From Candidatus Poribacteria bacterium (GTDB lineage: Bacteria > Poribacteria > WGA-4E > WGA-3G), in the NCBI GenBank assembly GCA_965205015.1, contig OZ242029.1, forward strand, positions 4,576,001 to 4,640,000: a stretch of 64,000 nucleotides of DNA, in the 5' to 3' direction. Shown piece by piece: positions 3 to 21,445 of the stretch. The notes below the pieces were generated by a model. That model saw only the letters and a list, made by a program, of their open reading frames with translations, was not told the DNA's origin and did not search any database. Made by a program: the position numbers and the translations under genes. Numbering within the stretch: the first letter of the stretch is position 1; every line of letters starts with the position of its first letter.

Positions 3-2045
3 AATCGTTCCTCGGCACTGCCTTACGACTATATCAGCAAGGCAGATGAGAAAATCATCCAAGGAGCCATTGACGCGGCACCCTCTCAAAAGGACTATCC
101 AGAAGATGGTGCGGTCGTCCTTTGGGAGAGCGTTGATGTAGACATCGATGAAAAGAGTCGTTATATCTATTCTACACGGCGCGTCGTCAAAATCCTGAAT
201 GAAGATGGTGCAGGTCTCGGCGAAATTAGCATCCCTTATATGCGTGGCAAAGATGATGTCACGATCCATCACGCCCGGACATTTACCCCTGATGGTAGCG
301 TCGTTGAACTGGATTTGAACAATGTGGTTACGAATATCCCGCCACCGAGTGCTGTGGATGCCGGTTTATACGTCGATGCACGCTTGATGTACTTCACACT
401 TCCAGAAATCTCCGATGGCTGCATCATAGACTACGCCTATTCCACGAACAATCTTGGACACGTCATGCGGGGTGAGTTTTGGCGTAAGGTCTATTTTCAA
501 GGCTCACAACCCGTGCAGTACTATCGTTTCACCGTACATATCCCGAAGAAAAAGCAACTTTACTATCAGATTTCAGGCGCGCCGGAGGTTACAGCAGGTT
601 TACAATCAAGTGCTTCTTTTCTCAATATTGAACCCACAATTACTGAGAATAACTACATCCGCACCTATACCTTTGAAGTGCAAGATGTCCCGCCCTTGAA
701 AGAAGAATATCTGATGCCTGCTCCGCAAGATCTCGCTTATAGCATTAGCATCTCCTCCATTGATTCTTGGGATAAATTAGTGACGTGGTATGCGACGCTC
801 ATTCGGGAGCAAGATACCATCACACCCGAAATTACGAAAAAGACCGATCAGATCCTCCGCGGTGCTTGGTCCCGGACGGAAAAAGTGAAACGCCTTTATG
901 AATACGTCGCGACGAACATCCAGTATCTCGGCTATGAACTCGGAATTTGGGCAATCAAACCGTATCCAGCGGACTTCGTTTTGAAAGTCGGGAAAGGGGA
1001 TTGTAAGGACAAAACGACGCTCCTCTCTACGATGCTTTCATCCGTGGGTATTAATTCCTATCCTGTTCTCATCTCAGCTGGCGATACACGCGGCGTTAAC
1101 GCCCATCTTCCTGATGGTGGTTCGGAGGTCGAGGCGGTCCCTTCACTCGCTTATTTCAATCACATGATTCTTGCTGTTGAAGGAAGCAAAAATGAATTCA
1201 TCTGGCTCGATCCGACAGCAGAGACGTGCGCTTTTGGGGATTTCCCTGCCGGTGACCAAGACAGGTGGGCACTGATCATCAACCCGCGGTTTCTAACAGA
1301 TAGCCGTCAGTCTTCGGAAATCGACGGTTCCCGACAATTGACAGCCGATAGCCCATCAATGGAAAACAGGCTCTATCTCTTTCGGAAGAGTCCTTCCAAA
1401 GAGGCAACATCGAATGTGAAACGCGTTCGGACCCGCGTAGCAGTGAAAAAAGATATGAGTGTCTCTGTTCACCAAGAGTTGACAGTGACAGGGGTTTTTA
1501 ACATGAAACTCAGAAGTCAACTCGCGCACCTTCAGACTTCAGAGGAAAAAGCAGAGTTCTTCCATAAAGCGTTGGAATTGGACGAACGTGCCAAGGTCAC
1601 GGAGGTTGAAGTCTCTGGGCTTTCAAAGTTAGATGGCGAATTGAAGGTCGACGTCACGTGGACATGTCAGGAGTATTTGTACGCTATCGGCAGTCAATTT
1701 GTCCTTGAATTACCGATCGTCAAACACCCCTATGCGGAGTTATTGAGTGAAGAACGCCGGATGTACCCTGCTATTATTGGTAAGGCATTAACGCTTGAGG
1801 ACAAGATCAGTGTCAGCACGGATGCCCCCTTTCGGATTGATACCGTTCCTGAGGAGCAAACGTTGAAGACCGATGTCGCAGAAATACAGATCCGCTATGC
1901 GCACTCTAAACGCAAAGCCGAGATGCATCAAACGATCCGTTTCCTGACCCCGAGGGTCACACCGGATAACATTTACCATCTCAAAGATGTCGTCAGAATC
2001 GCCTCAAATCGAGGACCGAAACGATTCATATTGACGCAGGATTAG
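3..2045 (+). CDS. DUF3857 + transglutaminase-like domain protein, 5'-truncated at the window edge
   Basis: Frame is open from base 3 into ORF 240..2045; motifs GDCKDK (catalytic Cys), FNHMI and WLDPT; DUF3857-type 'G.IIDYAY' segment. Confidence 0.9.
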   Translation, partial: NRSSALPYDYISKADEKIIQGAIDAAPSQKDYPEDGAVVLWESVDVDIDEKSRYIYSTRRVVKILNEDGAGLGEISIPYMRGKDDVTIHHARTFTPDGSVVELDLNNVVTNIPPPSAVDAGLYVDARLMYFTLPEISDGCIIDYAYSTNNLGHVMRGEFWRKVYFQGSQPVQYYRFTVHIPKKKQLYYQISGAPEVTAGLQSSASFLNIEPTITENNYIRTYTFEVQDVPPLKEEYLMPAPQDLAYSISISSIDSWDKLVTWYATLIREQDTITPEITKKTDQILRGAWSRTEKVKRLYEYVATNIQYLGYELGIWAIKPYPADFVLKVGKGDCKDKTTLLSTMLSSVGINSYPVLISAGDTRGVNAHLPDGGSEVEAVPSLAYFNHMILAVEGSKNEFIWLDPTAETCAFGDFPAGDQDRWALIINPRFLTDSRQSSEIDGSRQLTADSPSMENRLYLFRKSPSKEATSNVKRVRTRVAVKKDMSVSVHQELTVTGVFNMKLRSQLAHLQTSEEKAEFFHKALELDERAKVTEVEVSGLSKLDGELKVDVTWTCQEYLYAIGSQFVLELPIVKHPYAELLSEERRMYPAIIGKALTLEDKISVSTDAPFRIDTVPEEQTLKTDVAEIQIRYAHSKRKAEMHQTIRFLTPRVTPDNIYHLKDVVRIASNRGPKRFILTQD

Positions 2046-2135
2046 TTGTCAGTTGTCAGTTGTCAGTTATCAGTTATAAGAGGGCTTTGCTAAACGAAAC
2101 CTCTTACCTGAAGACTGCAGACTGTTAACTGAATA
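2044..2135 (+). repeat. Heptamer-flanked MITE/REP-like element, intergenic copy
   Basis: (AGTTGTC)x3+AGTTATC, core AAGAGGG...AAACCTCTT, then inverted ACTG.. heptamers; closely similar to 17898-17990. Confidence 0.8.
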
Positions 2136-2283
2136 GTAATAAAAGATGCCCAGCAACAGTTATCAGATTTTCCGCTATGGAACCGATTGAAATTTACCGC
2201 ACAGATTCTCAAACCCAGTTGGAATTGATCGAGAACCTGCGCGTAATGTAATGGAGCGCAGTCCAGGAGGCCATAATTAAAAA

Positions 2284-3291
2284 ATGCCAGCAACAGAAGA
2301 AGTTCAAGCAATAGAAGAGTTGATGAAAAGCCAAGAGTTGATTTTAGGGCAACTCAAAAAGGTAATCGTTGGGCAAGAGGAAGTTATCAATCAGATGTTG
2401 ATGGCACTTTTTGCTGGCGGACACTGCTTATTAGAGGGTGTCCCTGGGCTTGCCAAAACTCTCATAATTAGGACATTGGCACAAATTCTGAACCTTAAAT
2501 TTAAGCGGATCCAGTTCACGCCTGATCTCATGCCAGCCGACATCACCGGAACCGATGTCCTCGAGGAAGATCGCACGACCGGGCATCGCACGATCCGATT
2601 TATTCAGGGACCCATTTTCGCTAACATCCTCCTCGCCGATGAAATCAATCGGACACCGCCGAAAACACAAGCCGCACTCTTAGAGGCGATGCAGGAGTAT
2701 CACGTTACTGCCGGGGGAACGGAATTCGCATTGGAACAACCTTTCTTTGTGCTCGCTACACAGAATCCGATCGAGCAAGAAGGAACATATCCACTTCCAG
2801 AGGCGCAGTTAGATCGGTTCATGTTCAAAATCGTCATTGATTATCCGACAGAGACAGAGGAAACGGACATCGTTTCCACAACGACCGGTGCAGATATACC
2901 CGAACTTGACACCCTACTGTCTGGACACGTTATCGTAGCACTCCATGATATTGTGAGACGGGTGCCTGCCGCCGACAACGTCGTGCAATACGCTGTGAAA
3001 ATTGCGCGCGCAACCCGTCCGAAAGAGGAGGACGCACCCGATTTCATCCAGCAATGGGTGCGATGGGGCGCGGGACCCCGTGCGGGGCAGTATCTCATCT
3101 TAGGGGCAAAAGCCCGCGCGATTCTACGAGGTCGCTACAACGCCTCTTGTGAAGACGTGAAATCTGTCGCGCCTTCGGTTCTACGTCATCGCGTCTTAAC
3201 CAATTTCCATGCCGAAGCCGAGGGTGTCGACTCTGACACCGTCATCCAACGCCTACTCGACACAGTGCAGGAACCCGCTGCAAGGTTGTAG
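2284..3291 (+). CDS. MoxR family AAA+ ATPase
   Basis: GVPGLAKT Walker [40 protein letters not shown]. Confidence 0.95.
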
Positions 3292-4014
3292 ATGTCAGCA
3301 GAAAAAATCTCGGTTATCATTCCAGTCCTCAATGAGGAAAACGCCATTGCCAACGTCATCACCGATATTCCGAAGACCGTGCGGACCTTTGACGAAAAAA
3401 TTGAGGCCACAGTCGAGGAAATCATCGTTGTTGACAACGGCTGCACGGACAACACCGCCACAATTGCACACCGGAGCGGGGCAAAGGTGATAACTGAACC
3501 ACGACGGGGGTATGGATCCGCGTGTCTCGCCGGAATTGCGGCACTCACGACGACTGAACCGGACATCGTCGTTTTTCTGGATGGCGACTATAGCGACTAT
3601 CCGACAGATATGTCGTACCTCCTCCATCCGATACTTGAAGGCAAAACCGACTTTGTCATTGGTGCGAGAACCGCGGACAACGCAAGGGACGCGTTGTTAC
3701 CGCAAGCACGCTTCGGCAATTGGCTCGCCTGTTTCTTGATAAAGCACTTCTATGGCGTGCGCTATACAGATTTGGGTCCCTTTCGAGCGATCCGGTATCC
3801 GCAGCTCCTCGCTTTGAACATGCAGGATAAAACTTTCGGATGGACGGTCGAGATGCAACTCAAAGCCGCAAAGCAGGACATCTCTGTGTGTGAAGTTCCT
3901 GTTCGTTATCGGAAGCGGATTGGGGTCTCTAAAATCACTGGCACCTTCACCGGCACCCTCAAAGCCGGCTATAAGATCCTCACAACCCTCATCTACTACC
4001 GCTTTACGGAATGA
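3292..4014 (+). CDS. Glycosyltransferase family 2 (Dpm1-like)
   Basis: VIIPVLNEE, VVDNGCTD, FLDGD, R..G.SK. Confidence 0.92.
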   Translation: MSAEKISVIIPVLNEENAIANVITDIPKTVRTFDEKIEATVEEIIVVDNGCTDNTATIAHRSGAKVITEPRRGYGSACLAGIAALTTTEPDIVVFLDGDYSDYPTDMSYLLHPILEGKTDFVIGARTADNARDALLPQARFGNWLACFLIKHFYGVRYTDLGPFRAIRYPQLLALNMQDKTFGWTVEMQLKAAKQDISVCEVPVRYRKRIGVSKITGTFTGTLKAGYKILTTLIYYRFTE

Positions 4015-4015
4015 T

Positions 4016-4996
4016 ATGTTAGCAAAATTTTGGATTATAATTACAGCAGTAATCGTTCTTACTTCACCGGTGGTCGCTGATGAGATAAAGATCGCTAGCT
4101 GGAATATACAACAACTCGGTCAAACTAAGGCGGGGATTAATACGAGTAAGAATGAGAAGACCAAAGCCCGGACTGAATATCATAAGGCTAATGACACCAT
4201 AGGCAAGATAGCAGAAATCATAAAAAAGGGCAAATTTGATGTCGTTGCTATCCAAGAGGTTCAAGATATAGGTTTTAAAACCTTACCAAAACTATTAGAC
4301 ACTTTAGGCGCAAATTGGAAGTATATTGAAAGTGAAAGAACCGGTAGAGAGAAAAAAGAACAATATGCTATATTTTTTAACCCTGTAAAGTTAACACCAA
4401 AAGGCACTATACATCTCCATGATGATATGGAAGATGGTTGGGATCATTTCTCAAGAGACCCTGGATACGCGAGTTTTTCATATCGGGATTTTGAGTTTAT
4501 CATCATTACGTGCCATTTAGATCCTGACACACACGCTGCTTATGAAACAGAGCGTTTGGATGATGTTTATGAAGCCGTGAAACGCAAAACAGGCAATCCA
4601 AATATCTTGGTATTAGGGGATTTCAATTTAGAAGAGGGTCCAGAGGATATAGCATTCCAAGATGAGGGTCTTTTAGATGAGAAAAATTACCCTGAAATGA
4701 AGGCGGTTTTAGAGGCAACTTATGATACAACGGTCGCTGGCGAAAATGATGCAACGACTCTTGATAATATCCTGTTTAATTCTGGCCAATTTGAATTAAA
4801 AGAAAAAGGGGTGTATCGTTTTGATGACGAATTAGGTGAAGGTTATGATAAAGACATCTCCGATCACTACCCTGTGTGGGCTATCTTTGAGATACCGGAT
4901 GTCGAGGCGGCTGATGCCTCTCCATTTGCACCACAAGCCCCTTCTATGACAAAAATTGAACCCTCAACATGGAGCTCTCTCAGAAATCTAAATTAG
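4016..4996 (+). CDS. Secreted endonuclease/exonuclease/phosphatase (DNase I-like) family protein
   Basis: Signal peptide from ATG 4016; motifs SWNI, IQEV, CHL, GDFN, LDNI, SDHYPV; AT-rich. Confidence 0.9.
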   Translation: MLAKFWIIITAVIVLTSPVVADEIKIASWNIQQLGQTKAGINTSKNEKTKARTEYHKANDTIGKIAEIIKKGKFDVVAIQEVQDIGFKTLPKLLDTLGANWKYIESERTGREKKEQYAIFFNPVKLTPKGTIHLHDDMEDGWDHFSRDPGYASFSYRDFEFIIITCHLDPDTHAAYETERLDDVYEAVKRKTGNPNILVLGDFNLEEGPEDIAFQDEGLLDEKNYPEMKAVLEATYDTTVAGENDATTLDNILFNSGQFELKEKGVYRFDDELGEGYDKDISDHYPVWAIFEIPDVEAADASPFAPQAPSMTKIEPSTWSSLRNLN

Positions 4997-5026
4997 AGTT
5001 TTTTCAACTACAATCTATAGGTATCA

Positions 5027-5380
5027 ATGAACATGGATAACTTGCCTAAACATAACCAAAAACCAACAGAAAAAGGCAGAATCAAACTTATAGATATTGT
5101 CGCGCTCACACAGGATGTCCCAGAGCATAATCTTAAATGTGGAGAAGTCGGCACAATCGTTGAAATCCTTGAAAACGGCGAAGCAGTTGAGGTTGAATTC
5201 AGCAATGACAATGGGCAGATGCATAAGGGGCTGAGTTTCCCCGCATCTCAACTTAAGGTACTTTACCAAGAACCGATATCAGAATCAAAGCAGAAACAAA
5301 AATCCACTTCCAAACACACCAAATCCACCAAATCCGATAAACTCGCGATTCAGGCAATAACCACCAATTCCCACAATTGA
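5027..5380 (+). CDS. DUF4926 domain protein with low-complexity C-terminal tail
   Basis: IDIVALTQDVPEHNL..GEVGTIVEIL..GEAVEVEFS..NG pattern. Confidence 0.8.
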   Translation: MNMDNLPKHNQKPTEKGRIKLIDIVALTQDVPEHNLKCGEVGTIVEILENGEAVEVEFSNDNGQMHKGLSFPASQLKVLYQEPISESKQKQKSTSKHTKSTKSDKLAIQAITTNSHN

Positions 5381-5418
5381 CCGCCATAATCCTGCAAATC
5401 TTGATTCAGAAGAGGGAG

Positions 5419-5442
5419 TCGGGATTCGGAGATCCCTCCTAC
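5419..5442. repeat. REP-like hairpin ending in CCTAC (GTAGG on minus strand)
   Basis: TCGGGATTCGGAGATCCCTCCTAC; similar copies at 55143-55166, 29265-29288 and 21372-21394. Confidence 0.75.
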
Positions 5443-5469
5443 CGAAGATAAGCCCCAACCATATTTTCC

Positions 5470-5498
5470 TTGCTTTATTGGCAACGTACTGATATAAT
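5470..5498 (+). promoter_or_regulatory. sigma70-type promoter of the Crp/Fnr gene
   Basis: TTGCTT-N17-TATAAT with extended -10 TG. Confidence 0.7.
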
Positions 5499-5581
5499 TA
5501 AGGAAAAAGAACACTGCAATTTCCAGTGAACGGTCTCAAAAGAGTCCACGCTTAACCAGAAACCGATAGGGTGATCGTAGT

Positions 5582-6463
5582 ATGGTGACACAAAAAAAAA
5601 TCCCAGAGAGATTCTGGTGCGTTAAAGGGATAGACATCTTCCGAGACCTGACGGAAACAGATGCTGACGCGCTCGCACGGATAACGACTTTCGTCGAGTT
5701 AAAACACGGAGACACACTCTCCGCCGAAGGTGTTTATCTGTTGAAGGAAGGTCGCATCAAAATTCATCAAACACCCCCTGAAGGTGAAGCGATCACCTTA
5801 GATGTGTTGGAAGCTGGCGAATTCTTTGGGGCAGTGCGCTGGGAGGATAACGTTGCAGGTCCCAACGTCACCGCTGAGATATTTACAGAGGTTTCCGTTG
5901 TCGGAGTTGTTAGTGTCCAGAACTTCCAATATTTCTTGAAACGAAAACCGCACTTGGCGATGCCAGCGCAGAGAACTTTAGGAAGTCTTCTAAAGAGGCA
6001 TCTACGGTGGCGTGCGGCGGAATCAGGGAATTACAATCTCGTAACTTCATGTCAGAAACCGCGCAGGGGATTGACGAACCCTTTTCTAAACATTGCGTTC
6101 CGAAGTCCGGCGTCGCGACTCGCGCTTCTGTTACAAAACTGTGCCGACGCACCGGAACACAGGCGCACAGCGATGGGACGTAGTGCACAGTGTGTCTTAC
6201 GTAAACTCTCAACGAAGCGGTTGGCACAACTCATCGGCAGTTCCGTTGAGCAGATGGAAGCACTTCTCAATCAGTTTAAACAGCATCAGATCATCAAGAA
6301 ACGGTTTCGGCGGATTCAGATACTTGACCCGTGGCAACTAAAAAAGATTGCCAACGCAAGAATGAAAACGCTACCCCCTGAAACGATCAAAAGTCAAGAG
6401 AACACCCAAAATTATGAGCAAGAAGAACCCTTATTTGCAGCTCGACCAGCAGATGGTCGGTGA
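5582..6463 (+). CDS. Crp/Fnr family transcriptional regulator
   Basis: cNMP-binding barrel (VYLLKEGRIKI...GEFFG) and HTH (LAQLIGSSVEQ...L..F). Confidence 0.85.
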   Translation: MVTQKKIPERFWCVKGIDIFRDLTETDADALARITTFVELKHGDTLSAEGVYLLKEGRIKIHQTPPEGEAITLDVLEAGEFFGAVRWEDNVAGPNVTAEIFTEVSVVGVVSVQNFQYFLKRKPHLAMPAQRTLGSLLKRHLRWRAAESGNYNLVTSCQKPRRGLTNPFLNIAFRSPASRLALLLQNCADAPEHRRTAMGRSAQCVLRKLSTKRLAQLIGSSVEQMEALLNQFKQHQIIKKRFRRIQILDPWQLKKIANARMKTLPPETIKSQENTQNYEQEEPLFAARPADGR

Positions 6464-7793
6464 CATCTACACTTCACAAGAAGTGATGGAAAATCTGACA
6501 GTCTTATGCGATGAATACGGTGCTCGGTTCGCCGGAACACCTGAGGAATATGACGCCGCAAACTTCATCGCTGCGTGTTTCAAACGTTACGGACTCCAGA
6601 ATGTCAAACTTGAGACATATCCCTACGCTGGCTGGACGCGTGGCACGGCGACACTTGAGGTTCTCGAACCGATTCGTCGAACCCTGCACTGCATCTCGTT
6701 ACCCTACTGCCCCGCTGCCGACATCACCACGGAACTGGTCTCTGTTGGATGTGGAAGCCCTGACGAATACACTGCACTCGGTGGTACGGCTACCGATAAA
6801 CTGGTCATGGCAAAAAGTGCCTCGCCGCCGGATCTCGGAAGATGGGTACATCGCAAGGAGAAGTTTGAACGCGCCGTGCTTGCGGGTGCGAGTGGATTTA
6901 TTTTTGTCAGTGAACATCCTGGTGTAGGTCCCGAAACGGGAAGCCTTCAAAATGACAGACGCGCCCCAATCCCCGGTATATCCGTTTGCAAAGAGGATGG
7001 CGAATTCTTGGCACGGTTGATAGCACGAGGAAACGGGAAAGTAACATTAAAACTCCAGACAACGGACATCAATGAACCGAGGACCTCGTGGAACGTTGTC
7101 GCAGATTTGCCCGGTAATGAAAACGCCGATGAGATGGTGGTTGTGGGGTGTCATTACGATGGACACGATATTTCACAGGGCGCGCACGACCCCGCTTCAG
7201 GCATGGTATCCGTCATAGAAGCCGCTCGTGTGCTATCTGCGTATGCCGCTGATTCGCTCAAGTGCACCATCCGTTTCATCGCTTTCGGAACGGAAGAAAT
7301 CGGACTGACGGGTGCATTTCGTTATGTTGACGCGCACGCGGCGGAGTTGGATAACATTCGGTTTATGCTCAATATGGATGCGGCAGGCGGTGCAAGTCGT
7401 AAGGGCATTGTCCTCCACCACTGGGACGCGTTGGAATCCTTCTTTAGCACTGCATGTGAGCAGATGCACGCTGAAATGCCGGTTGGACAAAAGGTGCATT
7501 CCTACTCCGACCATTTTCCATTTTTTCTTAAGGGTGTACCTTCAAGCCACATGGGGGATCCAGAGGCACCTCCTGGTGGTAGAGGTTTCGGTCATACGGC
7601 TTATGATACACTGGACAAGGTGGAATTGGAGAATCTACGGGCTGCCAGTGCGGTCGGCGCACGAGTCGCCCTCCGCTGTGCGAATGCCGATGATTTTCCT
7701 GCCAAACGCCGGACATCCGAAGCGGTTCAAGAAATCGTTGACACTGACCCAGGGTTAGAGGGGTATCGAATCTCACTTAAACTGACTCGCTAA
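6414..7793 (+). CDS. M28 family peptidase with PA domain
   Basis: GCHYD, GAHDPASG, EEIGL, NMD, SDH, HTAYDTLDK. Confidence 0.92.
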   Translation: MSKKNPYLQLDQQMVGDIYTSQEVMENLTVLCDEYGARFAGTPEEYDAANFIAACFKRYGLQNVKLETYPYAGWTRGTATLEVLEPIRRTLHCISLPYCPAADITTELVSVGCGSPDEYTALGGTATDKLVMAKSASPPDLGRWVHRKEKFERAVLAGASGFIFVSEHPGVGPETGSLQNDRRAPIPGISVCKEDGEFLARLIARGNGKVTLKLQTTDINEPRTSWNVVADLPGNENADEMVVVGCHYDGHDISQGAHDPASGMVSVIEAARVLSAYAADSLKCTIRFIAFGTEEIGLTGAFRYVDAHAAELDNIRFMLNMDAAGGASRKGIVLHHWDALESFFSTACEQMHAEMPVGQKVHSYSDHFPFFLKGVPSSHMGDPEAPPGGRGFGHTAYDTLDKVELENLRAASAVGARVALRCANADDFPAKRRTSEAVQEIVDTDPGLEGYRISLKLTR

Positions 7794-7869
7794 GTTAAAG
7801 AATAGCATTGTCCCGCAAGCCCATACGCGGCTTGCGCCGCAGTCGGCTTTCAGCAGCCGGTTCAGATTC

Positions 7870-9297: not shown

Positions 9298-9411
9298 GTG
9301 TTTTTAAATCAGGAGCAAACGTCTGGTAATTATCCACGATAATGCACAAATCTAATGGAAACAGATGATCCGTCCAACGGATGGATCGTAGCAAGAGGCA
9401 ATAGGAAAAAA

Positions 9412-10128
9412 ATGAAATTGCAACTACCGACACTCATCGCCGTTTGTCTTGCGATCCTGCTCATTGGGGGTATTTACTTCTTCGGCAGAGACAAGGCAGA
9501 ATTGGGAATTGCCGTTAATTTGGAAAGTGAGGAATTCAAGCAACTCCGAACGCATGCCACTGATGCGTTCAACGCTGGGAAATATCAACAAGCCATTGAA
9601 CTTTACAGCACAGCGTTAAAGATGCGTCCTGAGAACGCTGAAATCTATAATGACCTTGGGACGGTCTACTACGAGCAAGGTCTCAAATACGCCGGACCGA
9701 GCTGGCCCTCGTGGGAGAAGGAGTTGAGAGAAGACTCCGTTGACGAGGCAGTCGCGGAACTCAAAGTCGCTGTTAGCAAAACGGGTTCTGGTGTCATTAC
9801 GTTCAAAACACGAGACGAAGCCGTCGCTGATGCGCTCGAACAAGAGGCAGGACACCTCGACGGAGAGGTATATAGACAGCGTTGGGAAAATGAAACAACG
9901 CTTAATGTTCTCATTGGACAGACAAAAATCTATCTGCTGCGCGCTCGCGACCATTACATCCGTGCTTTGGATCTGAAACCCACGCATAGTGTCGCTTATC
10001 GCAACCTCGGTTCATTTTATATGAAGGTAGGCAGAACCGATAAGGCACTTGATTATTATCAAGAAGCCTACAAATTAGATCCAAGGGATGCCGAGTTGGA
10101 AGAATACCTAAACCAGTTCAGAAAATAG
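9412..10128 (+). CDS. Membrane-anchored tetratricopeptide repeat protein
   Basis: N-terminal TM helix from ATG 9412 after AGGA; TPR motifs AEIYNDLG and AYRNLG..Y...G..DKA...Y..A..LDP. Confidence 0.85.
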   Translation: MKLQLPTLIAVCLAILLIGGIYFFGRDKAELGIAVNLESEEFKQLRTHATDAFNAGKYQQAIELYSTALKMRPENAEIYNDLGTVYYEQGLKYAGPSWPSWEKELREDSVDEAVAELKVAVSKTGSGVITFKTRDEAVADALEQEAGHLDGEVYRQRWENETTLNVLIGQTKIYLLRARDHYIRALDLKPTHSVAYRNLGSFYMKVGRTDKALDYYQEAYKLDPRDAELEEYLNQFRK

Positions 10129-10134
10129 TTTATA

Positions 10135-10230
10135 GTTTTCGGTGCGGGTTGCTACGCAACCCTTTCAGTTCTCGGTAACAAAAGGATTTTGTTAGACCAT
10201 ACCCCTCTTTAACCGATAACCGATAACCAT
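10135..10230 (+). repeat. Heptamer-flanked MITE/REP-like element
   Basis: GTTTTCGG..CAGTTCTCGG, AAAAGGATTTTGTTAG core, (AACCGAT)x2 end; same architecture as 2044-2135. Confidence 0.65.
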
Positions 10231-10238
10231 TTAGAAAT

Positions 10239-13200
10239 ATGCATCACAAACGCTGTCCAAATTGTGGATTCTTGAACCCGCCGTTCAAATTCTGCGGTGA
10301 ATGTGGAACGTCCCTTGAAAGTCCCAGACGGTCCCGTCAAATTTCAGCAGTCGATGAACAAGCCTTACCGCATGGGGCAGAACGCCGCCAGTTAACCGTC
10401 CTTTTCTGCGATATTGTCGGCTCCACTGCATTCACCGAAAAACTGGATCCTGAAGAACTCCGCAATCTTTTAGAAGTCTACCGGACCTGTATCATGGAGG
10501 TGGTTTTAGCACAAAACGGACATATCGCGCGTTACTTTGGGGATGGTATCCTCGTTTATTTCGGTTACCCCATTGCCCACGAGGATGCAGCACATCGCGC
10601 CATCCGAGCCGGGTTAGGTATCGTTGCCGCTATTGAGACCCTGAACCCGTATCTACAGGCGACCTTCGGTGTGGAAATCAGCGTTCGACTGAGTATTGAT
10701 ACAGGACTTGTTGTCGTCTGGCATATATCAGCAGAAGCGTCTCCCGAGGCGATTGACATCGTCGGTAAAACGCCGAATATCGCCGCAAGGATGCAAGAGT
10801 TAGCAACACCGAACAGCATTGTCATTGGGGATACAACCCATCAATTGGTTGAAGGCTTTTTTAAAACCGCTGCACTCGGTGCTTTTCCGCTCCGCGGTAT
10901 CTCACAACCTGTGAATGTGTACGAAGTATCAGGTGAAATTCCAGCACAGAGTCGCTTGGATATTGCCAGTGAAAGTGGATTGACCCCTCTGATCGGGCGG
11001 GAACGCGAGGTTGAATCGCTCAAGCAAGGGTGGACACAGGTGCTCGCCTCTAAAGGGCAAGCATTGCTGATTGAGGGTGAAGCCGGCATCGGAAAGTCAA
11101 GATGTTTGCAAGTCATTCAGGAGTACATCAAAGATCACCCAGAAGCGGTGACCATGGAATGTAGGTGCTCACCGTATTACCAGAACAGTCCGCTTTATCC
11201 TATTCTTTCACTGTTCCAAGAGCACGTTGTGCAGTTTTCAAACACCGATACCGCGCAGACACGCCTTAACAAGCTTGAGAGTTTACTCCGCGACTACAGC
11301 ATCCCGACTGTCGGAGGTGATACAGCATCCCTACCAGATTCTGATCGTGAGGTGCCAGAACAGACGCCAGAGACACTCCCACTTCTCGCCGAATTATTGG
11401 AGATACCTTTTGAAATACAACAACAAACAGTAACCGGTGTAGCGACTCGCCCGTACGGTAGACCCATTGAACAGGACACATATCCATCAGGCTGGGGACG
11501 CAGACAACGCCGACAGCAGACTTTGGAAGTCCTCGTCCAAGTCCTGTTGAAGATGGCTGAACAAAAGCCGATACTTTTTATCGTTGAAGATCTTCACTGG
11601 ATTGACCCCTCCAGTATAGAATTTCTTACGCTCTTGATTACACGGATCGAAAATGCTCGGATTTTCGCAGTTTTGTCTTGTCGGACCGATACGCAACATT
11701 TTCAGCACAGTGCGCGGTCTTCTGAGGAAAACGGTCAGTTTCTACAGGATGAAATCTCCGATAGCGATATTGAGAGTTCTGTTCTTGACAGAGAAATGCT
11801 GGATCAACTTCTACACCCAGAATGGGCAAATGCGGTGACATTGGTGGCACTCACACCTCCGCAGGTCGAGGAGATGATTCAACACGTCGCAGGAGACACA
11901 GCACTCCCATCAAAGGCGTTGACCCGGATTATCGAAATGACTGAGGGGGTCCCTCTATTTGTTGAGGAACTCACCCAGATGATGCTTGAAAATGTATCGG
12001 GGTTACAAACCCCTCCCACATCTGACGTGTCCAATGAAACAGACCCACATTCTCAAACAATGGAGGTGCCTGTAACGCTACAGGATTTGCTGACAACGAG
12101 ATTAGACGAACTCGGTGCTGCGAAGGAGATCGTCCAACTCGGGGCAACGCTTGGAAGGGAATGGACAGCGGAGTTATTACACGAGATTGCTTCTGGACTT
12201 GAGTTGGGAAATCGTCTTTTCACTGATTTTGTTTCGTTGAAGAGTGAATTGAGCAAACTCGTAAACGCCTACATCCTCAATCAAAATCCAGTCGCTGACA
12301 ATCAACTCCGGTATACGTTCCGCCATCCGCTCCTGCGTGAAACAGCGTATCAATCTCTGCTCAGGAGTAAGCGCCAGCAGTACCATCAACAGATTGCAAA
12401 GGTGTTGCAAAACGATGGCGGTTTCCAACCGGAGTTGGTAGCACATCATTATACCGAAGCCGGTCTTCCAGAAGAAGCGGTTGACTATTGGCACCGTGCT
12501 GGACAACGCGCACTGGAGCGTTCTGCAAATGTGGAAGGTATTCGCCATATCACGCAAGGTCTCGCGGCACTTGAGGAACTCTCGGTAAACACCGGCACAC
12601 GCGGCGTGGCGTCTACCGCCCAACAAGAATTGGAACTGCAGACGATTCTTGGGAGTGCGCTGATTGCAACAAAAGGGTATGCCGCCCCGGAAGTCGAGGT
12701 CGCCTATACGCGAGCGAGAGTACTCTTAGAAACCCTTGAAGCGAGAGGCGAGGTTACCGCGCCCGTACAGGAACCGACCTTAGGCGAGGCGGGGGATACT
12801 TCGCTTGATCGCATAAAGGATCTCCGCTTTCCGATTCTGTTTGGATTATGGCTCTCGCATCTCGTGCGCGGCCGATTCCTCTCCGCCCGTGAATTCGGTG
12901 AACAGTGCTTTGTAATTGCCAAGCAAGTCGAAGATCCAGCTTTTGAGGTCGAGGCGCATCGAGCCCTCGGCTCAACGCTTTACTATTTAAGTGAATTCAA
13001 AAGTGCCCTCGCCCATCTTGAGGCTGGCATTGAAATCTATCAACCGCAGCTGCATCCGGTTCCAACGTTTCTTCACTTCGTAGCCGATCCTGGGATGACC
13101 TTACTCGCCTATTCTGCTCCACTTTTATGGTCCCTTGGCTATCCCGTGCAAGCCGAGGCTCGGCTTGCAGAAGCTGCAAGAATTGGAAAGGACAGAAGTC

Positions 13201-13919
13201 ATCCGTTCAGTGATGCTGTGTTGCTCTATTTTACAACTGTTCTTAATCAACATCGCGATGACGTTGAAAAGGTGGAGCGCGCTGCAACCGAGATGCTACA
13301 GATATGTCAAGAACATGGATTTTCCCTATGGGAAGCCGCCGCAACGGTCATGCAGGGCTGGGCACTTACAGAATTGAATCACCCGGAAAAAGGGATTCCG
13401 ATGATACGTAAGGGTATTGCCGCATGGGAAAAGACAAGGGCTGAATTGCAACTGCCACTTTTTCTTGCACTCCTCGCACAAGCCTATCAACGCGCAGGAC
13501 AGTATACATTAGCCTTACAAACACTTGATTCGGCATTGAGCGTCGTCACACGAACCGGCGAGCGTGCCTATGATGCGGAGCTCACCCGGCGGAAAGGCGA
13601 ACTCTGTCTCGCACTTGGTAAAACAACTGAAGCAGTTAGCGGAGGGGAATTCGGGGTTATAAACCCTTCCTACAACGCTGTTGAAAAGGCTGAAGCCTAT
13701 TTTCAGGAGGCATTAGCGATCGCGCGCCGCCAAGGCGCAAAATCTTGGGAACTCCGAGCCGCTCTCAGTCTGAGCGAATTATGGTGCACGCAAAACCGTT
13801 CTCGGGAGGCGCACAATCTGCTGAGACCGATATATCTATGGTTTTCGGAAGGTTTTGATACAAGAGACCTTCAACAGGCAAAACACCTGTTGGAGAAGCT
13901 GCAGGCTACCTCAAAGTAA
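10239..13919 (+). CDS. Zinc ribbon - class III adenylate/guanylate cyclase - STAND ATPase - TPR protein
   Basis: CPNC..FCGECG; AERRQLTVLFCDIVGST, FGDG, N.AAR; GEAGIGKS Walker A, EDLHW; C-terminal helical repeats ending WF.EGFDT.DL. Confidence 0.93.
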   Translation: MHHKRCPNCGFLNPPFKFCGECGTSLESPRRSRQISAVDEQALPHGAERRQLTVLFCDIVGSTAFTEKLDPEELRNLLEVYRTCIMEVVLAQNGHIARYFGDGILVYFGYPIAHEDAAHRAIRAGLGIVAAIETLNPYLQATFGVEISVRLSIDTGLVVVWHISAEASPEAIDIVGKTPNIAARMQELATPNSIVIGDTTHQLVEGFFKTAALGAFPLRGISQPVNVYEVSGEIPAQSRLDIASESGLTPLIGREREVESLKQGWTQVLASKGQALLIEGEAGIGKSRCLQVIQEYIKDHPEAVTMECRCSPYYQNSPLYPILSLFQEHVVQFSNTDTAQTRLNKLESLLRDYSIPTVGGDTASLPDSDREVPEQTPETLPLLAELLEIPFEIQQQTVTGVATRPYGRPIEQDTYPSGWGRRQRRQQTLEVLVQVLLKMAEQKPILFIVEDLHWIDPSSIEFLTLLITRIENARIFAVLSCRTDTQHFQHSARSSEENGQFLQDEISDSDIESSVLDREMLDQLLHPEWANAVTLVALTPPQVEEMIQHVAGDTALPSKALTRIIEMTEGVPLFVEELTQMMLENVSGLQTPPTSDVSNETDPHSQTMEVPVTLQDLLTTRLDELGAAKEIVQLGATLGREWTAELLHEIASGLELGNRLFTDFVSLKSELSKLVNAYILNQNPVADNQLRYTFRHPLLRETAYQSLLRSKRQQYHQQIAKVLQNDGGFQPELVAHHYTEAGLPEEAVDYWHRAGQRALERSANVEGIRHITQGLAALEELSVNTGTRGVASTAQQELELQTILGSALIATKGYAAPEVEVAYTRARVLLETLEARGEVTAPVQEPTLGEAGDTSLDRIKDLRFPILFGLWLSHLVRGRFLSAREFGEQCFVIAKQVEDPAFEVEAHRALGSTLYYLSEFKSALAHLEAGIEIYQPQLHPVPTFLHFVADPGMTLLAYSAPLLWSLGYPVQAEARLAEAARIGKDRSHPFSDAVLLYFTTVLNQHRDDVEKVERAATEMLQICQEHGFSLWEAAATVMQGWALTELNHPEKGIPMIRKGIAAWEKTRAELQLPLFLALLAQAYQRAGQYTLALQTLDSALSVVTRTGERAYDAELTRRKGELCLALGKTTEAVSGGEFGVINPSYNAVEKAEAYFQEALAIARRQGAKSWELRAALSLSELWCTQNRSREAHNLLRPIYLWFSEGFDTRDLQQAKHLLEKLQATSK

Positions 13920-13956
13920 CTGTGTTTGGAACGATGAACCAAAATCGTAGCCTGCA
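13900..13956. repeat. Inverted GTAG-REP-like pair overlapping the cyclase 3' end
   Basis: TGCAGGCTAC (13900-13909) and GTAGCCTGCA (13947-13956). Confidence 0.55.
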
Positions 13957-14079
13957 ACAATACGCAGAAATACTTTCTTCGCATTGGATTTTAGCGTTTG
14001 CAAAAACACGCAGGCGGGTATGTGAAACGCACGTAAGCGTCTTAACGCACGCGGTTCTCCCGCAAGGAATAATTAAAAA

Positions 14080-14940
14080 ATGAGACTTGGTGTTGTTGGA
14101 CTCTGTGGGGACTTTCGTACCCTCACATCGGATGAGATCACAAAAATCAAAGCGTTGGAATTTACCGGTTTAAGTTTCCATTTCCCCAGCGCGGAGATTC
14201 CATCTGTACCACCAGATGCTGCCACCCGTTGTGTGCAAATGTTAAAAGCTGCGGAACTTGACCTTGTTCAATTCGGCATAACTTATGAGGAATGCCTTTT
14301 TCATCCCGATGCCGATATCCGAAAAGCTGGGATCGCCAGTGTCCAACGCGGCATACCGACGGCTGCCTCTCTCAACGCGCACCATTATCTATTTCGCGCA
14401 GGGAGTCTCAATCCCGATGGGGCTTGGACCTCCCATCGAGATAACCACCTTCCAGCATCGATGGAGCGTCTGATTGACACTTTGAAACCGATCGCAGAAC
14501 ATGCCGAACGGCACGAACTGACCCTTGTTATGGAGACACATGCCGTTTCAATTATGGATTCACCCGAAACGTGTCGGGAGGTGGTAGAGCGTGTCGGTTC
14601 CGAGAGGCTTCGTATCGTCATGGATTTCGTCAATCACTTTCAAACACTTCGGCAGGTCTATGAAAGCGAATCACGGCTTAACCACATTTTTGACGTCATG
14701 GGACCGATCGCACCGATGGCACATATCAAAGACATTAGCGTCCAGAACGGTTTAGTACTCCATCTCAATGAGGAAGTACCCGGTGAAGGTGAATTGGCAC
14801 TCGGTGTCGCATTAAAGCGTTTTGATGCCCTCTATCCAGATGGCTACGGATTGATAGAACATCTCCCTGCGGAGAAAATTCCGCTCGCGAACGCAAATGT
14901 TCGGCGAATTGCCGCCGAAAACGGCGTCGATATTTTTTAA
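14080..14940 (+). CDS. Sugar phosphate isomerase/epimerase (xylose isomerase-like TIM barrel)
   Basis: VMETH, MDFVNH, AHIKD, PGEG, LIEH metal-binding motifs. Confidence 0.88.
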   Translation: MRLGVVGLCGDFRTLTSDEITKIKALEFTGLSFHFPSAEIPSVPPDAATRCVQMLKAAELDLVQFGITYEECLFHPDADIRKAGIASVQRGIPTAASLNAHHYLFRAGSLNPDGAWTSHRDNHLPASMERLIDTLKPIAEHAERHELTLVMETHAVSIMDSPETCREVVERVGSERLRIVMDFVNHFQTLRQVYESESRLNHIFDVMGPIAPMAHIKDISVQNGLVLHLNEEVPGEGELALGVALKRFDALYPDGYGLIEHLPAEKIPLANANVRRIAAENGVDIF

Positions 14941-15027
14941 TGGTTGTCAGTCGTCAGTCGTCGGTTAAAAGGCTTTCCTCAACCCTATCTCCTGATCAAG
15001 GGGGATCAAGGGGTGAAATCTCTGTAG
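14941..15027 (+). repeat. Heptamer element arm plus G/C-rich palindromic repeat
   Basis: TGGTTGTCAGTCGTCAGTCGTCGGTTAAAAGG followed by CTCCTGATCAAGGGGGATCAAGGGG. Confidence 0.6.
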
Positions 15028-15042
15028 AAAAAAAATGGAGGC

Positions 15043-17571
15043 TTGATGATGAAAGGCTTTCTAAATACATTCATATTCCCCTCTTCACCCCGTAGGGGTG
15101 AAATCTCTATAGGGAGAATAGCATGCTTCATTCTTGTTTCGATCTTTTTCATACTTCTGCACCCAGCGTTCGGGCAAGAATCCAATCTGGTTGAGGAGGC
15201 CCAAAAACAGGCACGGAGTTGGTGGTCGAACTCTCAGGTTTACGTTGGCGTCATCCTTCTCGTCTTCATAATTAGTAGCGTTGGCTATATAATCAGGCTT
15301 TTCAAAAAGGACAAACTTCTTAAGAAACTCCTGAATAAGTACGTTGTTTTTCAGATGAAAGACGGCAGGCGTTACCGAGGCACCATGCGTCTGGAAATCA
15401 CAGGCATGGAGATTATCTCTGAGGAATCCCGGCAACGCGGACACGCCCCAAGTTATATTTTCACCAACGAAGAACGTGATGAGGGAATTGTCGCCTACAT
15501 CCGTTACCATGATTCAATGAATGAGCGTGAACTCAGAGAACGCGCGTGGGAACTTGAGCGCGTCTACCATCCGCCTGTCATCTACAAAATCGGGCGGAAA
15601 ATTCGGAATATGTTCATCGCTCTCAACGAGGCATTGAAAGAAGCCATTAGCATGGCTTGGAGCAGTTTCACAAGAAGCGCGAACAAGCGTTTAGAACGGT
15701 ACGCGGAAGTATATGAAGAGGGTGGCGGTAATCTGGAGCAAAGGCTCGGCAGATTGGAAGAAGAATCTACAGGCTACTTGGAGCAGGAGAGTTATGAACG
15801 TTTGATCGAACGGTTGATTGGAACACGGGTCAAAGTCCGAGTGCGTTTCGGTGAACATACCGCTGAGTACACGGCTATCCTCAAAGACTACAATAACAAA
15901 CATATTGCGCTCATGGATGTGAAGGACAAGGACAACAACGGCTACGCGGACGAGTGGGAATACGAACATGAATTTGAGAAGGATCTCGCAAAACTCAACC
16001 GCCGAGATGACCGCGGATTGCGGTGTCGAGCAGAGGGCAACGAGATCATCTTTGAAAACAATACACCCTATACCATCCAGCTCGGCCGCATTCGATTGAC
16101 AGAAGACTCACCGAAATGGGAAAAGGATTATGAATACAAATACCATATCGGTGCCTTCAGTGTTCAAAGACTTGAGGTCACTCCTGTCGTTAAGCATAAT
16201 GTCGAGCCGTTCGAGCGCGTCGCCATTCGAGACACGCGTGCCATAAACAATTACAAAAAAATTTGGTTCAAGTTTCGCTCTTTCCGAGATGCGGATATCG
16301 TATTCCCGCGTCGCTACTGCACAATTGTTGAAAGCGCGGAAAAATACCAGCCTGAACTTTTCAGTCTTGCCGGCTTGACAGATACTATTTTAGACATGCG
16401 TGATACAGAGAACATCGCTATTACCAACAAAGATGGCAATACTATCCACGGTATCAACGTTGTTCATGGGTATGTGACAAATATCAATGAGGAGCGTATT
16501 GATTTAAAGGCAATCGACGCGAGTTATAGCCGCAGATGGGATGTTGAAAGCGCGTTTCGCCGTTTTGATAATAAACTTCGCCATGGATTTCCTATCTACA
16601 AGCGGCTTCTCCCCATAAATCGCGTCCGGATTACAGCGCATGCTTCGCTCATTGAGCAGATACACAGTACCCCCATTCGGCACGCCGCGTTAGCACCGCT
16701 TATTTATCCACAACCCCGTAACCTCAACACGACGGAACAGCGCACACGTAGACGAAAACGGATGTGGAATCGAATTGTGAGGCGGATAAATGCTGCAATT
16801 TGGAAATCAGGAAACGGGATTTCCAGAACGCCTGATGTAAAACGTTCGGAAGTACCAATCGCGATGCCGTTTAAACTCATGGCACTGACTGGAAATACAT
16901 CCTCCGTCGAATTTCCGGTCCTCGAACGTTTTGAATACATTCAGGATCACCACATGATTTACAACGCGGTTCAAAATTTGCGAACCGATCGGTTAGCAAA
17001 GACTGATATTTTATGGATTGGGAACGGCGAGATTTACAAATCCGGCTATCGATTAAACATAGATACTGAACATCGAATCAAAAATTTCGTCAGTCAAGGC
17101 GGGGTCGTTATAGTTTCTGGACAAGATATCAAAGCCAGCGCCAAACAGCGCCGCGGTACAGGGTGGATTCCGGAACCTCTCACCGGCGTTGAATGTGAAG
17201 AGACTTATGAACTCTCTCCCACATCACAAGGGAAACGCTCCCGTATCTTCCAATATCCGAATCCACTGAATGGGCATCATGCCGATCCAGAGACGCAGGA
17301 TCAGCCCTTTATTCGACTGGATGATATGTGGTTGGATCCGCTGGGAAAATGGACATCTCTCGCCAAAATTAACACAGCCGCTACGGGACTTCCGAAGAAT
17401 GGATCTGAAAATGCCTCCGCGCTTTTACTCCTGCCGTTTCAGCAAGGGTTATACATCGTCACCAGTTTAAGGAATGAGACGGAAGCAGATGTCCAAATCA
17501 ACGATAAAATTATGGAAAACCTGCTCCATTTTTCCGTTAAATGGCTTGATCGGCAACGTCCGACTGTTTAG
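15043..17571 (+). CDS. Hypothetical membrane-anchored multidomain protein (two Sm/LSm-like segments; C-terminal GATase1-like/DUF4350-like domain)
   Basis: 842-aa ORF after GGAGG; signal/TM helices; C-terminal 'IKNFVSQGGVVIVSGQ'. Confidence 0.75.
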   Translation: MMMKGFLNTFIFPSSPRRGEISIGRIACFILVSIFFILLHPAFGQESNLVEEAQKQARSWWSNSQVYVGVILLVFIISSVGYIIRLFKKDKLLKKLLNKYVVFQMKDGRRYRGTMRLEITGMEIISEESRQRGHAPSYIFTNEERDEGIVAYIRYHDSMNERELRERAWELERVYHPPVIYKIGRKIRNMFIALNEALKEAISMAWSSFTRSANKRLERYAEVYEEGGGNLEQRLGRLEEESTGYLEQESYERLIERLIGTRVKVRVRFGEHTAEYTAILKDYNNKHIALMDVKDKDNNGYADEWEYEHEFEKDLAKLNRRDDRGLRCRAEGNEIIFENNTPYTIQLGRIRLTEDSPKWEKDYEYKYHIGAFSVQRLEVTPVVKHNVEPFERVAIRDTRAINNYKKIWFKFRSFRDADIVFPRRYCTIVESAEKYQPELFSLAGLTDTILDMRDTENIAITNKDGNTIHGINVVHGYVTNINEERIDLKAIDASYSRRWDVESAFRRFDNKLRHGFPIYKRLLPINRVRITAHASLIEQIHSTPIRHAALAPLIYPQPRNLNTTEQRTRRRKRMWNRIVRRINAAIWKSGNGISRTPDVKRSEVPIAMPFKLMALTGNTSSVEFPVLERFEYIQDHHMIYNAVQNLRTDRLAKTDILWIGNGEIYKSGYRLNIDTEHRIKNFVSQGGVVIVSGQDIKASAKQRRGTGWIPEPLTGVECEETYELSPTSQGKRSRIFQYPNPLNGHHADPETQDQPFIRLDDMWLDPLGKWTSLAKINTAATGLPKNGSENASALLLLPFQQGLYIVTSLRNETEADVQINDKIMENLLHFSVKWLDRQRPTV

Positions 17572-18734
17572 CCCATCAACACATCATTCAACTTCTCATC
17601 GCCTTCTGTAATAACCAACGCAACCGCTAATACGACTATCGGCAGGTTCCTGTCTTCTACAAAGCCCTCTAATTTCTGTTCGTCTTTTTCCGTTGTGACA
17701 ATCAGATCTGCTCCTGTTTTTTGGAAAGTCGTGTATATCTGCTGTTTGTCGATTTCCGTATAGATATGGTGGTCGGGAAATGCCAGGAGTTCTGCGCTTA
17801 CAACGGAGCATCTTATGAGGGTCGCCACAAACGCGTCCGGATCTCCAATTCCACAAACTGCGAGCACCCGTTTTCCTTTGAGTTCTTTTATATTAGAGTT
17901 ATCGGTTCTCGGTAGTCGGTTTTCAGTTAAAAGGTTTTCGCTTAACAAATCCCTCTTGTAACTGACGACTGACGACTGACAACTGACCGCCAATGGATAG
18001 AGGTGTGTTGGTTGGTGAATGCTTTCCAAGATTAGCGCGTTCGGTGCTGACGATTTCACCAATTTTTTGATATGCGCGGATATGTTGGGTGTATCTGTAT
18101 GCGTTAGTAAGATGAGGTCTGCGCGTCGTAGCGCGGAGGGGGGCTCACGTAAAGTTCCCGCCGGTAGCAAGTGCTGAGGACTCCCGAAGGGGTGTGTCGC
18201 CGGAATAGTGAGAATATCGACGTCGCGGGCAAGCTGCCGATGCTGGAATCCATCATCTAAGAGCAAGACATCCACCTTGAAACGTTCAAGTGCTATCTGA
18301 CCTGCCAGATAACGGCATTTCCCGACAACAATCGGAACGCCGCTGAGGTGTTTCGCCATCATATATGCTTCATCCCCGCTTTCCATAGCGGAAGCATACA
18401 CTTTTTCGCCGTCTGAGACAATTGTCACTTTTTCACGAACGCGACGTTTATACCCGCGCGACAGAATAGCGACGCGCCTCCCCTCTCTTTGAAGATGTTT
18501 CGCAATAGCGATAACAGCAGGTGTTTTACCCGTCCCGCCAACAACAATGTTCCCGACACTGATGACTCGGCACGGCAACCTACGTGCTTTAAGCACCCCA
18601 CGATTATATAAGATATTTCGGAGTTGGACGCTTGCCCTGTAGAGCCAACTCAATGGAATTAATAAAAAACGTAGGGGGGTAGCGAGGATTCTCTGCTGTA
18701 GCGAACCAAGGTCGTGGGTGTGTGTCAATCTCAT
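17568..18734 (-). CDS. lpxK: Tetraacyldisaccharide 4'-kinase
   Basis: VISVGNIVVGGTGKTP, LSRGY, GDE, DDGFQH, LLPAG.LRE, FPDHH, TTEKD. Confidence 0.97.
   Translation of the reverse strand: MRLTHTHDLGSLQQRILATPLRFLLIPLSWLYRASVQLRNILYNRGVLKARRLPCRVISVGNIVVGGTGKTPAVIAIAKHLQREGRRVAILSRGYKRRVREKVTIVSDGEKVYASAMESGDEAYMMAKHLSGVPIVVGKCRYLAGQIALERFKVDVLLLDDGFQHRQLARDVDILTIPATHPFGSPQHLLPAGTLREPPSALRRADLILLTHTDTPNISAHIKKLVKSSAPNALILESIHQPTHLYPLAVSCQSSVVSYKRDLLSENLLTENRLPRTDNSNIKELKGKRVLAVCGIGDPDAFVATLIRCSVVSAELLAFPDHHIYTEIDKQQIYTTFQKTGADLIVTTEKDEQKLEGFVEDRNLPIVVLAVALVITEGDEKLNDVLMG
17898..17990 (-). repeat. 93-bp heptamer-flanked element inserted in-frame in lpxK
   Basis: Minus strand GCGGTCAGTTGTCAGTCGTCAGTCGTCAGTTACAAGAGGGATTTGTTAAGCGAAAACC... 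aligns with intergenic 2044-2135. Confidence 0.85.
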
Positions 18735-20145: not shown

Positions 20146-20212
20146 CAGCAAATATTGTAACTCCCACAAGAATCCACTGACTGCCGACGGCTGAGGGAAA
20201 CCGACAGCCACT

Positions 20213-21333: not shown

Positions 21334-21445
21334 ATTATTGTAAGGCACACCCAGAGCCGTTCAACTCTTCTATAGGAGCGAGCTGCGCTCCCGATTTTAC
21401 TGACAGCTGACCGCCGACGGCTGACAGCCATTCCAAAGAAATAAA

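Follow-up and report, generated by a model that had tools for sequence, protein, structure and literature searches.

Gene lpxK, within a 64,000 nt stretch of the genome of a Candidatus Poribacteria bacterium (assembly GCA_965205015.1, contig OZ242029.1, positions 4,576,001-4,640,000; hereafter the window, from whose first nucleotide all positions are counted), carries in frame a palindromic element with arms of degenerate heptamers (17897-17991, minus strand), which took the place of part of a loop of the enzyme. The element belongs to a dispersed repeat family, abundant and clade-restricted within sponge-dwelling Poribacteria, most copies of which lie at gene junctions, with a minority in frame in tolerant loops. 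Among close relatives the LpxK loop has been rewritten many times, and in several of them a gene for a four-helix-bundle protein is enclosed by arms of the same type; the lpxK element is probably a gene-less form of that cassette.

An In-Frame Palindromic Element in lpxK

The lpxK gene (tetraacyldisaccharide 4'-kinase; 17568-18734, minus strand), located downstream of argC and lpxB, has an intact frame of 388 aa that matches Pfam PF02606 (E 9e-92) and scores above the cut-off for TIGR00682. It occurs as a single copy in 5/5 relatives, and the accessible text of PMC6286764 gives it as essential in E. coli. The closest relatives of this LpxK among GTDB genomes are from Candidatus Poribacteria (76-83% identity), and sponge metagenomes are among the sequencing runs that contain the stretch. 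The element comprises a left arm (~17958-17991), a core (~17925-17957) and a right arm (~17897-17930), and its bases 17898-17990 encode LpxK residues 249-279, a peptide of 31 aa. RNA from this copy is predicted to fold into a hairpin on either strand (z -3.0 for the sense and -3.7 for the antisense strand).

The original prediction, made from the letters of the window, held that this segment is homologous to an intergenic sequence at 2044-2135, and this was confirmed by a local alignment score of 93, which was reached by none of 1000 dinucleotide shuffles (best score, 30). The arm-free 33-nt core of the lpxK copy also finds its best match in the window in the 2044 copy (score 39, against at most 31 in 50 shuffled windows). 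When a profile derived solely from 24 copies in the sister genome G001 was run on the window, it recovered the lpxK copy with 63 bits, as well as segments at 2041-2132 (48 bits), 20096-20212 (30), 10124-10227 (27), 21395-21432 (27), 14942-14978 (19) and 50054-50156 (16.5), while the maximum was 4.2 bits in five shuffles and 9.8 bits in the reversed window. A chance match of low-complexity sequence is ruled out, because the core matches alone and an independent profile gives 63 bits.

An assembly artefact can likewise be discarded, since contigs from two other studies cross the element without gaps (X4, 17304-18264, with 12 differences; X5, 17520-18260, with 36 differences). As to a possible excision of the element from RNA, no clean joint skipping it was seen among those listed for X2, X4 and X20, and unknown letters fill the jump over 17786-17992 made by one X5 contig of low depth; in the RNA run X20 (share 0.07, related strain, contigs), one contig enters the element for 16 nt without bridging it. 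The absence of Rfam matches anywhere in the window speaks against a known RNA family. The in-frame codons of the right arm are all CGA and never TGA (9/9), an argument that we consider circular and do not use.

Anatomy, Abundance and Placement of the Repeat Family

In full elements (81-142 nt in the 24 G001 copies), a left arm made up of several RGYNNTC units is followed by a variable core and an inverted right arm. The arm units are degenerate, the commonest being AGTTATC (29 of 267 units), which corresponds to the TAACTGA heptamer on the other strand; variation occurs at fixed positions and is mostly purine for purine and pyrimidine for pyrimidine. Using a strict detector, inverted arm pairs were found in 24 of 60 G001 stretches. 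The preferred end of the element is AAT(A/G)G(C/T), and left ends are preceded by T in 62 of 77 cases, usually by AAT.

Genome-wide counts of the repeats were obtained from relatives of the window genome. A 3.4-unit arm pattern, counted with overlapping matches, was found 298, 701 and 711 times in G001, G002 and G003, versus 17 and 1 in the more distant Poribacteria G004 and G005; the reversed pattern gave 11, 45, 13, 0 and 0 matches, respectively. Among viral contigs there was a sole match, a full element between two genes of contig L170.

The claim that the palindromic family is dispersed and enters reading frames held when intergenic and in-frame copies were scanned in the 60 G001 stretches surrounding listed arm matches (57 from the first-listed pattern hits and three from another search). 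Of 66 clusters, 52 were intergenic, eight lay at the ends of open reading frames (ORFs) and six were internal and in frame, namely two in pbpC, two in a DUF4175 gene and one each in recD2 and a DUF4159 gene. Since coding density is near 0.90 in neighbouring loci, according to our own ORF calls, six internal copies out of 66 indicate that in-frame copies are strongly under-represented. Many copies extend from a stop codon to just short of a start codon.

The Element Replaced Codons of a Loop of LpxK

Measured between two conserved flanking motifs, the loop segment of LpxK spans 44 aa in the window versus 25-26 aa in the nearest unfilled orthologs. With 31 residues encoded by the element, this means a loss of 12-13 original codons and a net gain of 18-19 residues. 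The proposal that 31 aa had been added thus stands for what the element encodes but not for what the protein gained, and instead of a clean insertion we find a replacement. Among 31 close loci, mostly titled Poribacteria, 25 have a short segment (20-26 aa), and the 31-aa peptide is absent from all 38 of the distant LpxK loci that were parsed (of 49; 11 were unparsed); this comparison rules out a conserved subdomain of LpxK as the identity of the insert. With the peptide unconserved in distant LpxK and the shuffled background not reaching the alignment score, neither of the observations that would have spoken against a repeat-derived insert was made. Unfilled lpxK sites start with Leu-Val/Ala/Gly codons, often TTRGY, resembling the end of the element.

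The pattern of substitution suggests that the loop peptide evolves neutrally: dN/dS between the window and L001 was 0.93 within the loop versus 0.14 outside it, and the corresponding values against L028 were 0.73 and 0.20. Nucleotide identity in the loop (80/93) is no lower than that of the remainder of lpxK. We found no sign of the useful new loops envisaged in the original prediction, considering a dN/dS of ~0.9 and the depletion of in-frame copies (6/66) with respect to coding density.

Residues K70/T71, D121/E122, D160/D161 and H322, assigned by equivalence to catalytic residues whose roles are given in the available part of PMC6286764, are retained in the window LpxK and invariant in a 55-row alignment, and the P-loop, the Walker B motif, the catalytic Asp/His and the two Rossmann-like domains are all present. 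A structure model (mean predicted local distance difference test score, pLDDT, of 82) has the same fold as Aquifex LpxK (4EHY; template modelling score 0.87 on the target). Its low-confidence stretches are limited to residues 190-193 and 251-279, and the latter, with pLDDT <50, make up nearly the whole element-encoded peptide. In the model, the insert is placed after strand 234-247 and before the first strand of the C-terminal domain; the element-bearing segment is a predicted surface loop following the inter-domain strand. Judging from sequence and model, the repeats seem to keep altering a portion of this core enzyme with no visible damage to it; the catalytic residues are intact.

The LpxK Loop Has Been Rewritten Repeatedly Among Strains

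The loop was parsed in 120 of 121 close LpxK proteins (P0085 remained unparsed); the segment spans 32-81 aa in 116 of them, is unfilled, with 26 aa, in three and has 17 aa in one. Several pairs of lengths are 7 aa apart, equivalent to three heptamers, and the loop of P0098 is unfilled, yet this protein is 99.4% identical elsewhere to the filled P0016. Together, the series displays different cores, 21-nt steps of arm units, nested repeats of other types, deletion and unfilled alleles, showing that the loop was rewritten many times. Further insert sites exist near the C-terminus of LpxK in L006 and L008.

On a tree of 44 LpxK rows (a quick search, with B-type rows thinned) we counted 24 changes of loop state, against 26-35 with shuffled labels, and monophyly was rejected by the approximately unbiased (AU) test for loop types A (p-AU 0.0002), E (0.00002) and B (0.029). 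The window and L001 share the same loop type and belong to different clades; additionally, their synonymous differences affect 4/38 codons in the loop flanks and 72/231 further away (p 0.01), a dip that is absent in two control pairs. The sharing of a loop type across clades together with the dip at its flanks fits short-tract exchange between strains. The window core scores 51 against an intergenic G001 copy and 50 against the orthologous core from L001.

A different repeat was observed in the lpxK gene of L035 (Acidobacteriota; 5119-6195), one of the 38 distant loci parsed, in which a run of unrelated CAAAAT(C/T)-type heptamers lies in frame in the same loop; by its sequence it would be an independent hit on the same LpxK site by another repeat family. 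A YegS-like lipid kinase (L081, L101-L104) contains a second in-frame hot-spot loop, with four different element-derived peptides in five genomes.

Cassettes With a Four-Helix-Bundle Gene

In relatives, the same arms enclose one subtype of PF05635 genes, which code for four-helix-bundle (S23p/Avd-like) proteins. With the strict detector, a left arm upstream and a right arm downstream were found at 4/8 of these arm-type loci (3/5 distinct sites), against a background of 3/236 ordinary ORFs and 0/18 Y1 transposase loci; a fifth locus has the right arm only and the remaining three have variant arms recognized by eye. The PF05635 ORF lies between inverted termini in relatives L082, L089, L091 and L094. 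All eight arm-type loci are situated between protein genes, at five unrelated junctions, and these sites are polymorphic. The livG-livF junction, compared in seven genomes, is empty in three, occupied by a full cassette in one, by a truncated cassette in another and by gene-less elements in two, and the junction next to the YegS-like gene, in five genomes, is empty in two and contains the gene in one, a gene-less element in another and a different insert in the last. The presence of the armed gene at junctions that are also found empty or gene-less offers a direct test of the origin of heptamer repeats and of the function of the S23p family.

Other four-helix-bundle genes were also observed. 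A third subtype (L090 and L093, ~1400-1950) is flanked by yet another type of repeat; this association of different repeat types with different subtypes suggests one repeat family per protein subtype. Avd-like genes without arms occur in L084 (1500-2200) and L095 (1300-1680), the former followed by an ORF that reads, by eye, like a putative reverse transcriptase of a diversity-generating retroelement (DGR).

Origin and Spread of the Elements

The explanation that we consider probable is that the lpxK element is a selfish foldback repeat that originated from a heptamer-armed cassette, replaces a few bases at junction-like motifs, is later reshuffled between arms and strains, and is tolerated in loops. 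Ancestral Leu-Val/Ala codons (TTRGY), which resemble the element end, could have seeded the first event in lpxK; later variants of the loop would arise by recombination or conversion between arms of copies dispersed in the genome, and also when co-resident strains exchange short homologous tracts. Selection would only keep the frame open, with a translated loop whose peptide is neutral. The short elements would be gene-less derivatives of the cassette with the same arms around the PF05635 gene, moved by some enzyme through a nucleic-acid intermediate.

Several observations weigh against this explanation. We did not find the arm-type four-helix-bundle gene in three of eight arm-rich genomes (G001, G006 and G010), nor any four-helix-bundle gene in the window, whose copies have no ORF, and three of the eight arm-type loci are broken; these findings indicate that the repeats can be kept without the gene. 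The dN/dS estimate comes from 31 codons and two pairs. Our own patterns defined the loop types, and types A, D and E could be a single core family; likewise, the 44 rows were chosen after an earlier tree had been seen, and the trees are quick searches. The dip in synonymous differences is seen in one of the six pairs examined. In the 567 kb searched, the cores from L004 and L002 had no significant match and that from L013 only a marginal one. Finally, low pLDDT in a poorly aligned insert is no proof of disorder.

It is conceivable, if doubtful, that the lpxK element represents, in non-autonomous form, a class of mobile cassettes not yet described that would spread by copy-and-replace and whose sole gene would code for an Avd/S23p-like four-helix-bundle protein recognizing its own heptamer arms. 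If true, this would explain scattered heptamer repeats of bacteria, assign a function to the orphan PF05635 family and make sense of repeatedly rewritten loops.

We regard as unlikely that the four-helix-bundle protein is the mobility factor, binding the arms as RNA or single-stranded DNA and driving copy-and-replace with a host or borrowed enzyme, with the short elements mobilised in trans. Replacement instead of insertion at lpxK and the DUF3857 gene fits such a mechanism, as does the abutment of arms on the four-helix-bundle gene far above background; moreover, the arm-type genes are closely related (84-96 of 115 residues identical at four sites) and occupy five unrelated junctions, each filled in few genomes, and other subtypes are flanked by other repeat units (L083, L088 and L092; L090 and L093). 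However, in G001, with its hundreds of arms, we could find no arm-type gene, and there is no reverse transcriptase beside the arm-type genes in the 1.5-kb flanks read. The mutation pattern of DGRs is adenine-specific, unlike the purine/purine and pyrimidine/pyrimidine variation of the arms. The available text of PMC4990558 speaks to both sides, since tandem heptamers precede the S23p ORF in the intervening sequence (IVS) of the 23S rRNA gene of Coxiella, but the PF05635/S23p family has no known catalytic activity.

A conventional MITE (miniature inverted-repeat transposable element), moved in trans by an insertion sequence transposase and with the lost codons due to later deletions, appears quite improbable. 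The inverted ends with a preferred AAT(A/G)G(C/T) terminus (62/77 left ends after T), the empty and filled sites, the copy in virus contig L170 and a shared A at two junctions are as expected from it; this A could represent a 1-bp duplication, but frame constraints explain it too. Conversely, the arms are degenerate and periodic instead of fixed terminal inverted repeats (TIRs), the cores vary freely, and there is no target-site duplication at lpxK or at the DUF3857 gene, where target codons were lost. No arms were found at any of 18 Y1 (PF01797) transposase loci in three genomes, other transposase families, DDE included, not having been searched; this speaks against mobilisation by a Y1 transposase of the kind associated with repetitive extragenic palindromic (REP) sequences (REP-associated tyrosine transposase, RAYT). 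The designation of the element as mobile is therefore not sustained in the MITE sense, with neither target-site duplication nor transposase found.

That the repeats are domesticated regulatory RNA elements for translation or mRNA processing, as proposed for TAACTGA repeats, and that the lpxK copy tunes expression or activity, is hardly credible: strong junction preference, hairpin folding and a loop as identical in nucleotides (80/93) as the rest of the gene despite neutral amino acid change would fit, but orthologous junctions are freely empty or carry different cores, near-identical strains have unfilled lpxK alleles, and the low divergence reaches into the flanks as a recombination tract would.

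Comparison With Known Repeats

Rickettsia palindromic elements (RPEs) are dispersed palindromes of ~100-150 bp present in intergenic regions as well as within the reading frames of unrelated housekeeping genes, where the protein fold accommodates them (Ogata et al., 2000, 2002; as summarized in the accessible text of PMC10969869 and PMC3733652). The analogy with RPEs drawn by the original prediction holds in that the repeats described here work like them, being dispersed, palindromic (81-142 nt) and in frame at fold-compatible sites (lpxK, the DUF3857 gene, pbpC and recD2), a likeness by description. It fails for the conserved peptide of each RPE family, which is absent here (dN/dS of 0.93 and 0.73; a single site holds many unrelated peptides). 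Other differences are the phylum, the arms of tandem heptamers with a variable core, the replacement of loop codons, the repeated rewriting of the same loop and the fraction of internal copies, 6/66 here versus nearly half for RPEs in the partial accounts available. Whereas in-frame repeats of Rickettsia look like single insertions, the LpxK loop shows replacement, rewriting, loss and inter-strain exchange over 120 close orthologs, a series that makes the life cycle of in-frame inserts measurable.

The cyanobacterial STRR and SDR repeats, reportedly treated by Elhai et al. in 2008, were compared as heptamer-repeat relatives. TAACTGA repeats, described from Beggiatoaceae, Cyanobacteria and Bacteroidetes in the available text of MacGregor (2015; PMC4679880), share the same heptamer, are mostly intergenic, often end just before a start codon and have some copies in ORFs. 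There, however, an almost invariant unit is repeated directly, with one inverted case in 170 sets, and the copies in ORFs are mainly at protein ends, unlike the degenerate inverted arms found here, which flank a core and lie within a core enzyme. The main text of that paper does not contain the word Poribacteria, and the accessible parts of the literature searched contain no description of a heptamer-armed family in Poribacteria.

The resemblance to S23p-bearing IVS of 23S rRNA genes (PF05635/TIGR02436; Coxiella; PMC4990558, in the part available) lies in the arms that, in relatives, enclose a PF05635 gene with inverted termini forming a stem, in the heptamer repeats before the ORF and in the sporadic distribution. 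Unlike those IVS, the cassettes are between protein genes (8/8 loci) and not in rRNA, and no ORF is present in the window copies; excision by RNase III, a feature of S23p IVS, could not rescue an in-frame mRNA copy. Like MITEs and the GTAG/CGTC REPs with RAYT, as far as the accessible text of PMC3184786 and PMC3733652 describes them, the elements are small non-autonomous palindromes, some in frame in ORFs. MITE-like terminal inverted repeats are present here as degenerate inverted arms with a preferred end motif, although the elements lack a fixed TIR and a GTAG/CGTC tag, show no clear target-site duplication and have no Y1 transposase with these flanks.

Other Copies and Features in the Window

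Besides the lpxK element, the window contains several copies of the family. The full intergenic copy at 2041-2135 (plus strand; 48 bits, fold z -4.9) has the same core as that of lpxK and starts at the TAG stop codon of a DUF3857/transglutaminase-like gene (3-2045); at this junction, L105-L108 have different cores and L109 has no element. The full copy at 10130-10230 (plus strand; 27 bits) is also intergenic and has a second small hairpin nested in its left arm, whereas two other intergenic copies on the plus strand are partial, with the left arm and the start of the core only (14941-14978; 19 bits) or the right arm only (21395-21432; 27 bits). Another full intergenic copy (50052-50158, plus strand; 16.5 bits, fold z -3.9), with a different core, occupies the space that separates a pstA-like gene from an ion-channel gene.

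The G001 profile thus recovered the predicted copies at 2044, 10135, 14941, 21400 and 50052, but gave no hit at 38600-38645 and 55121-55140 and only 2.2 bits at 52613-52690, sites that are at most decayed fragments. Possible decayed copies were also noticed at 51697-51840 and 7839-7866, with 5.9 and 6.7 bits, within the range of the controls.

The in-frame copy predicted in the DUF3857 gene at ~1299-1353 (1299-1356, plus strand) is decayed and scores only 8.5 bits, within the control range, and its acceptance comes from the orthologs in L105-L109, because L105 has a clearer copy at this position and L106, L107 and L108 have an unrelated loop of 13-16 codons. As in lpxK, the alignment points to a replacement of the 13-16 codon loop.

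A full copy that the original prediction had missed lies at the argC-lpxB junction (20092-20212, minus strand; 30 bits), where it replaced the original GTG start of lpxB, which six relatives keep; the unfilled L029 retains this start and its ribosome-binding site. The frame from the core to lpxB is open in 6/6 alleles of the argC-lpxB subtype, whose right arms differ by exactly 21 nt, which suggests that the element is translated and probably supplies a new N-terminus to LpxB. In-frame loops and false upstream starts such as that of lpxB would mislead the annotation and phylogeny of Poribacteria proteins.

Also in lpxB, a loop (19431-19558, minus strand) is 32 aa longer than in L001; contig depth rises there to ~1800 versus 290 and L122 matches a portion of the loop, which therefore resembles another in-frame repeat, unrelated to the first. 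Relatives carry other sequences at this same loop.

Inverted arrays of 8 nt (GGAAGAC and CTTCCAAC types) occur at 42353-42420 (minus strand), at the 5' end of ORF 41842-42492; similar arrays flank another four-helix-bundle subtype (L083, L088 and L092), and similar peptides appear in the LpxK loops of P0084 and P0108. Short GC-rich palindromes at 5418-5441, 29264-29290, 40512-40536 and 55142-55165, several of which end in CTAC, are candidate GTAG-type REPs, a name used in the accessible text of PMC3733652. In-frame tandem or near-tandem duplications were found at 33471-33565 (24-nt spacing, ABC permease), 41601-41671 (33-nt, beta-helix protein), 36661-36853 (108-nt, Uma2 protein) and 34998-35189 (123-nt, gene before a PemK-like toxin). 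An extended phosphate-transport cluster (47007-55119, plus strand) includes several permease and three ABC ATPase genes, an ion-channel gene and phoU.

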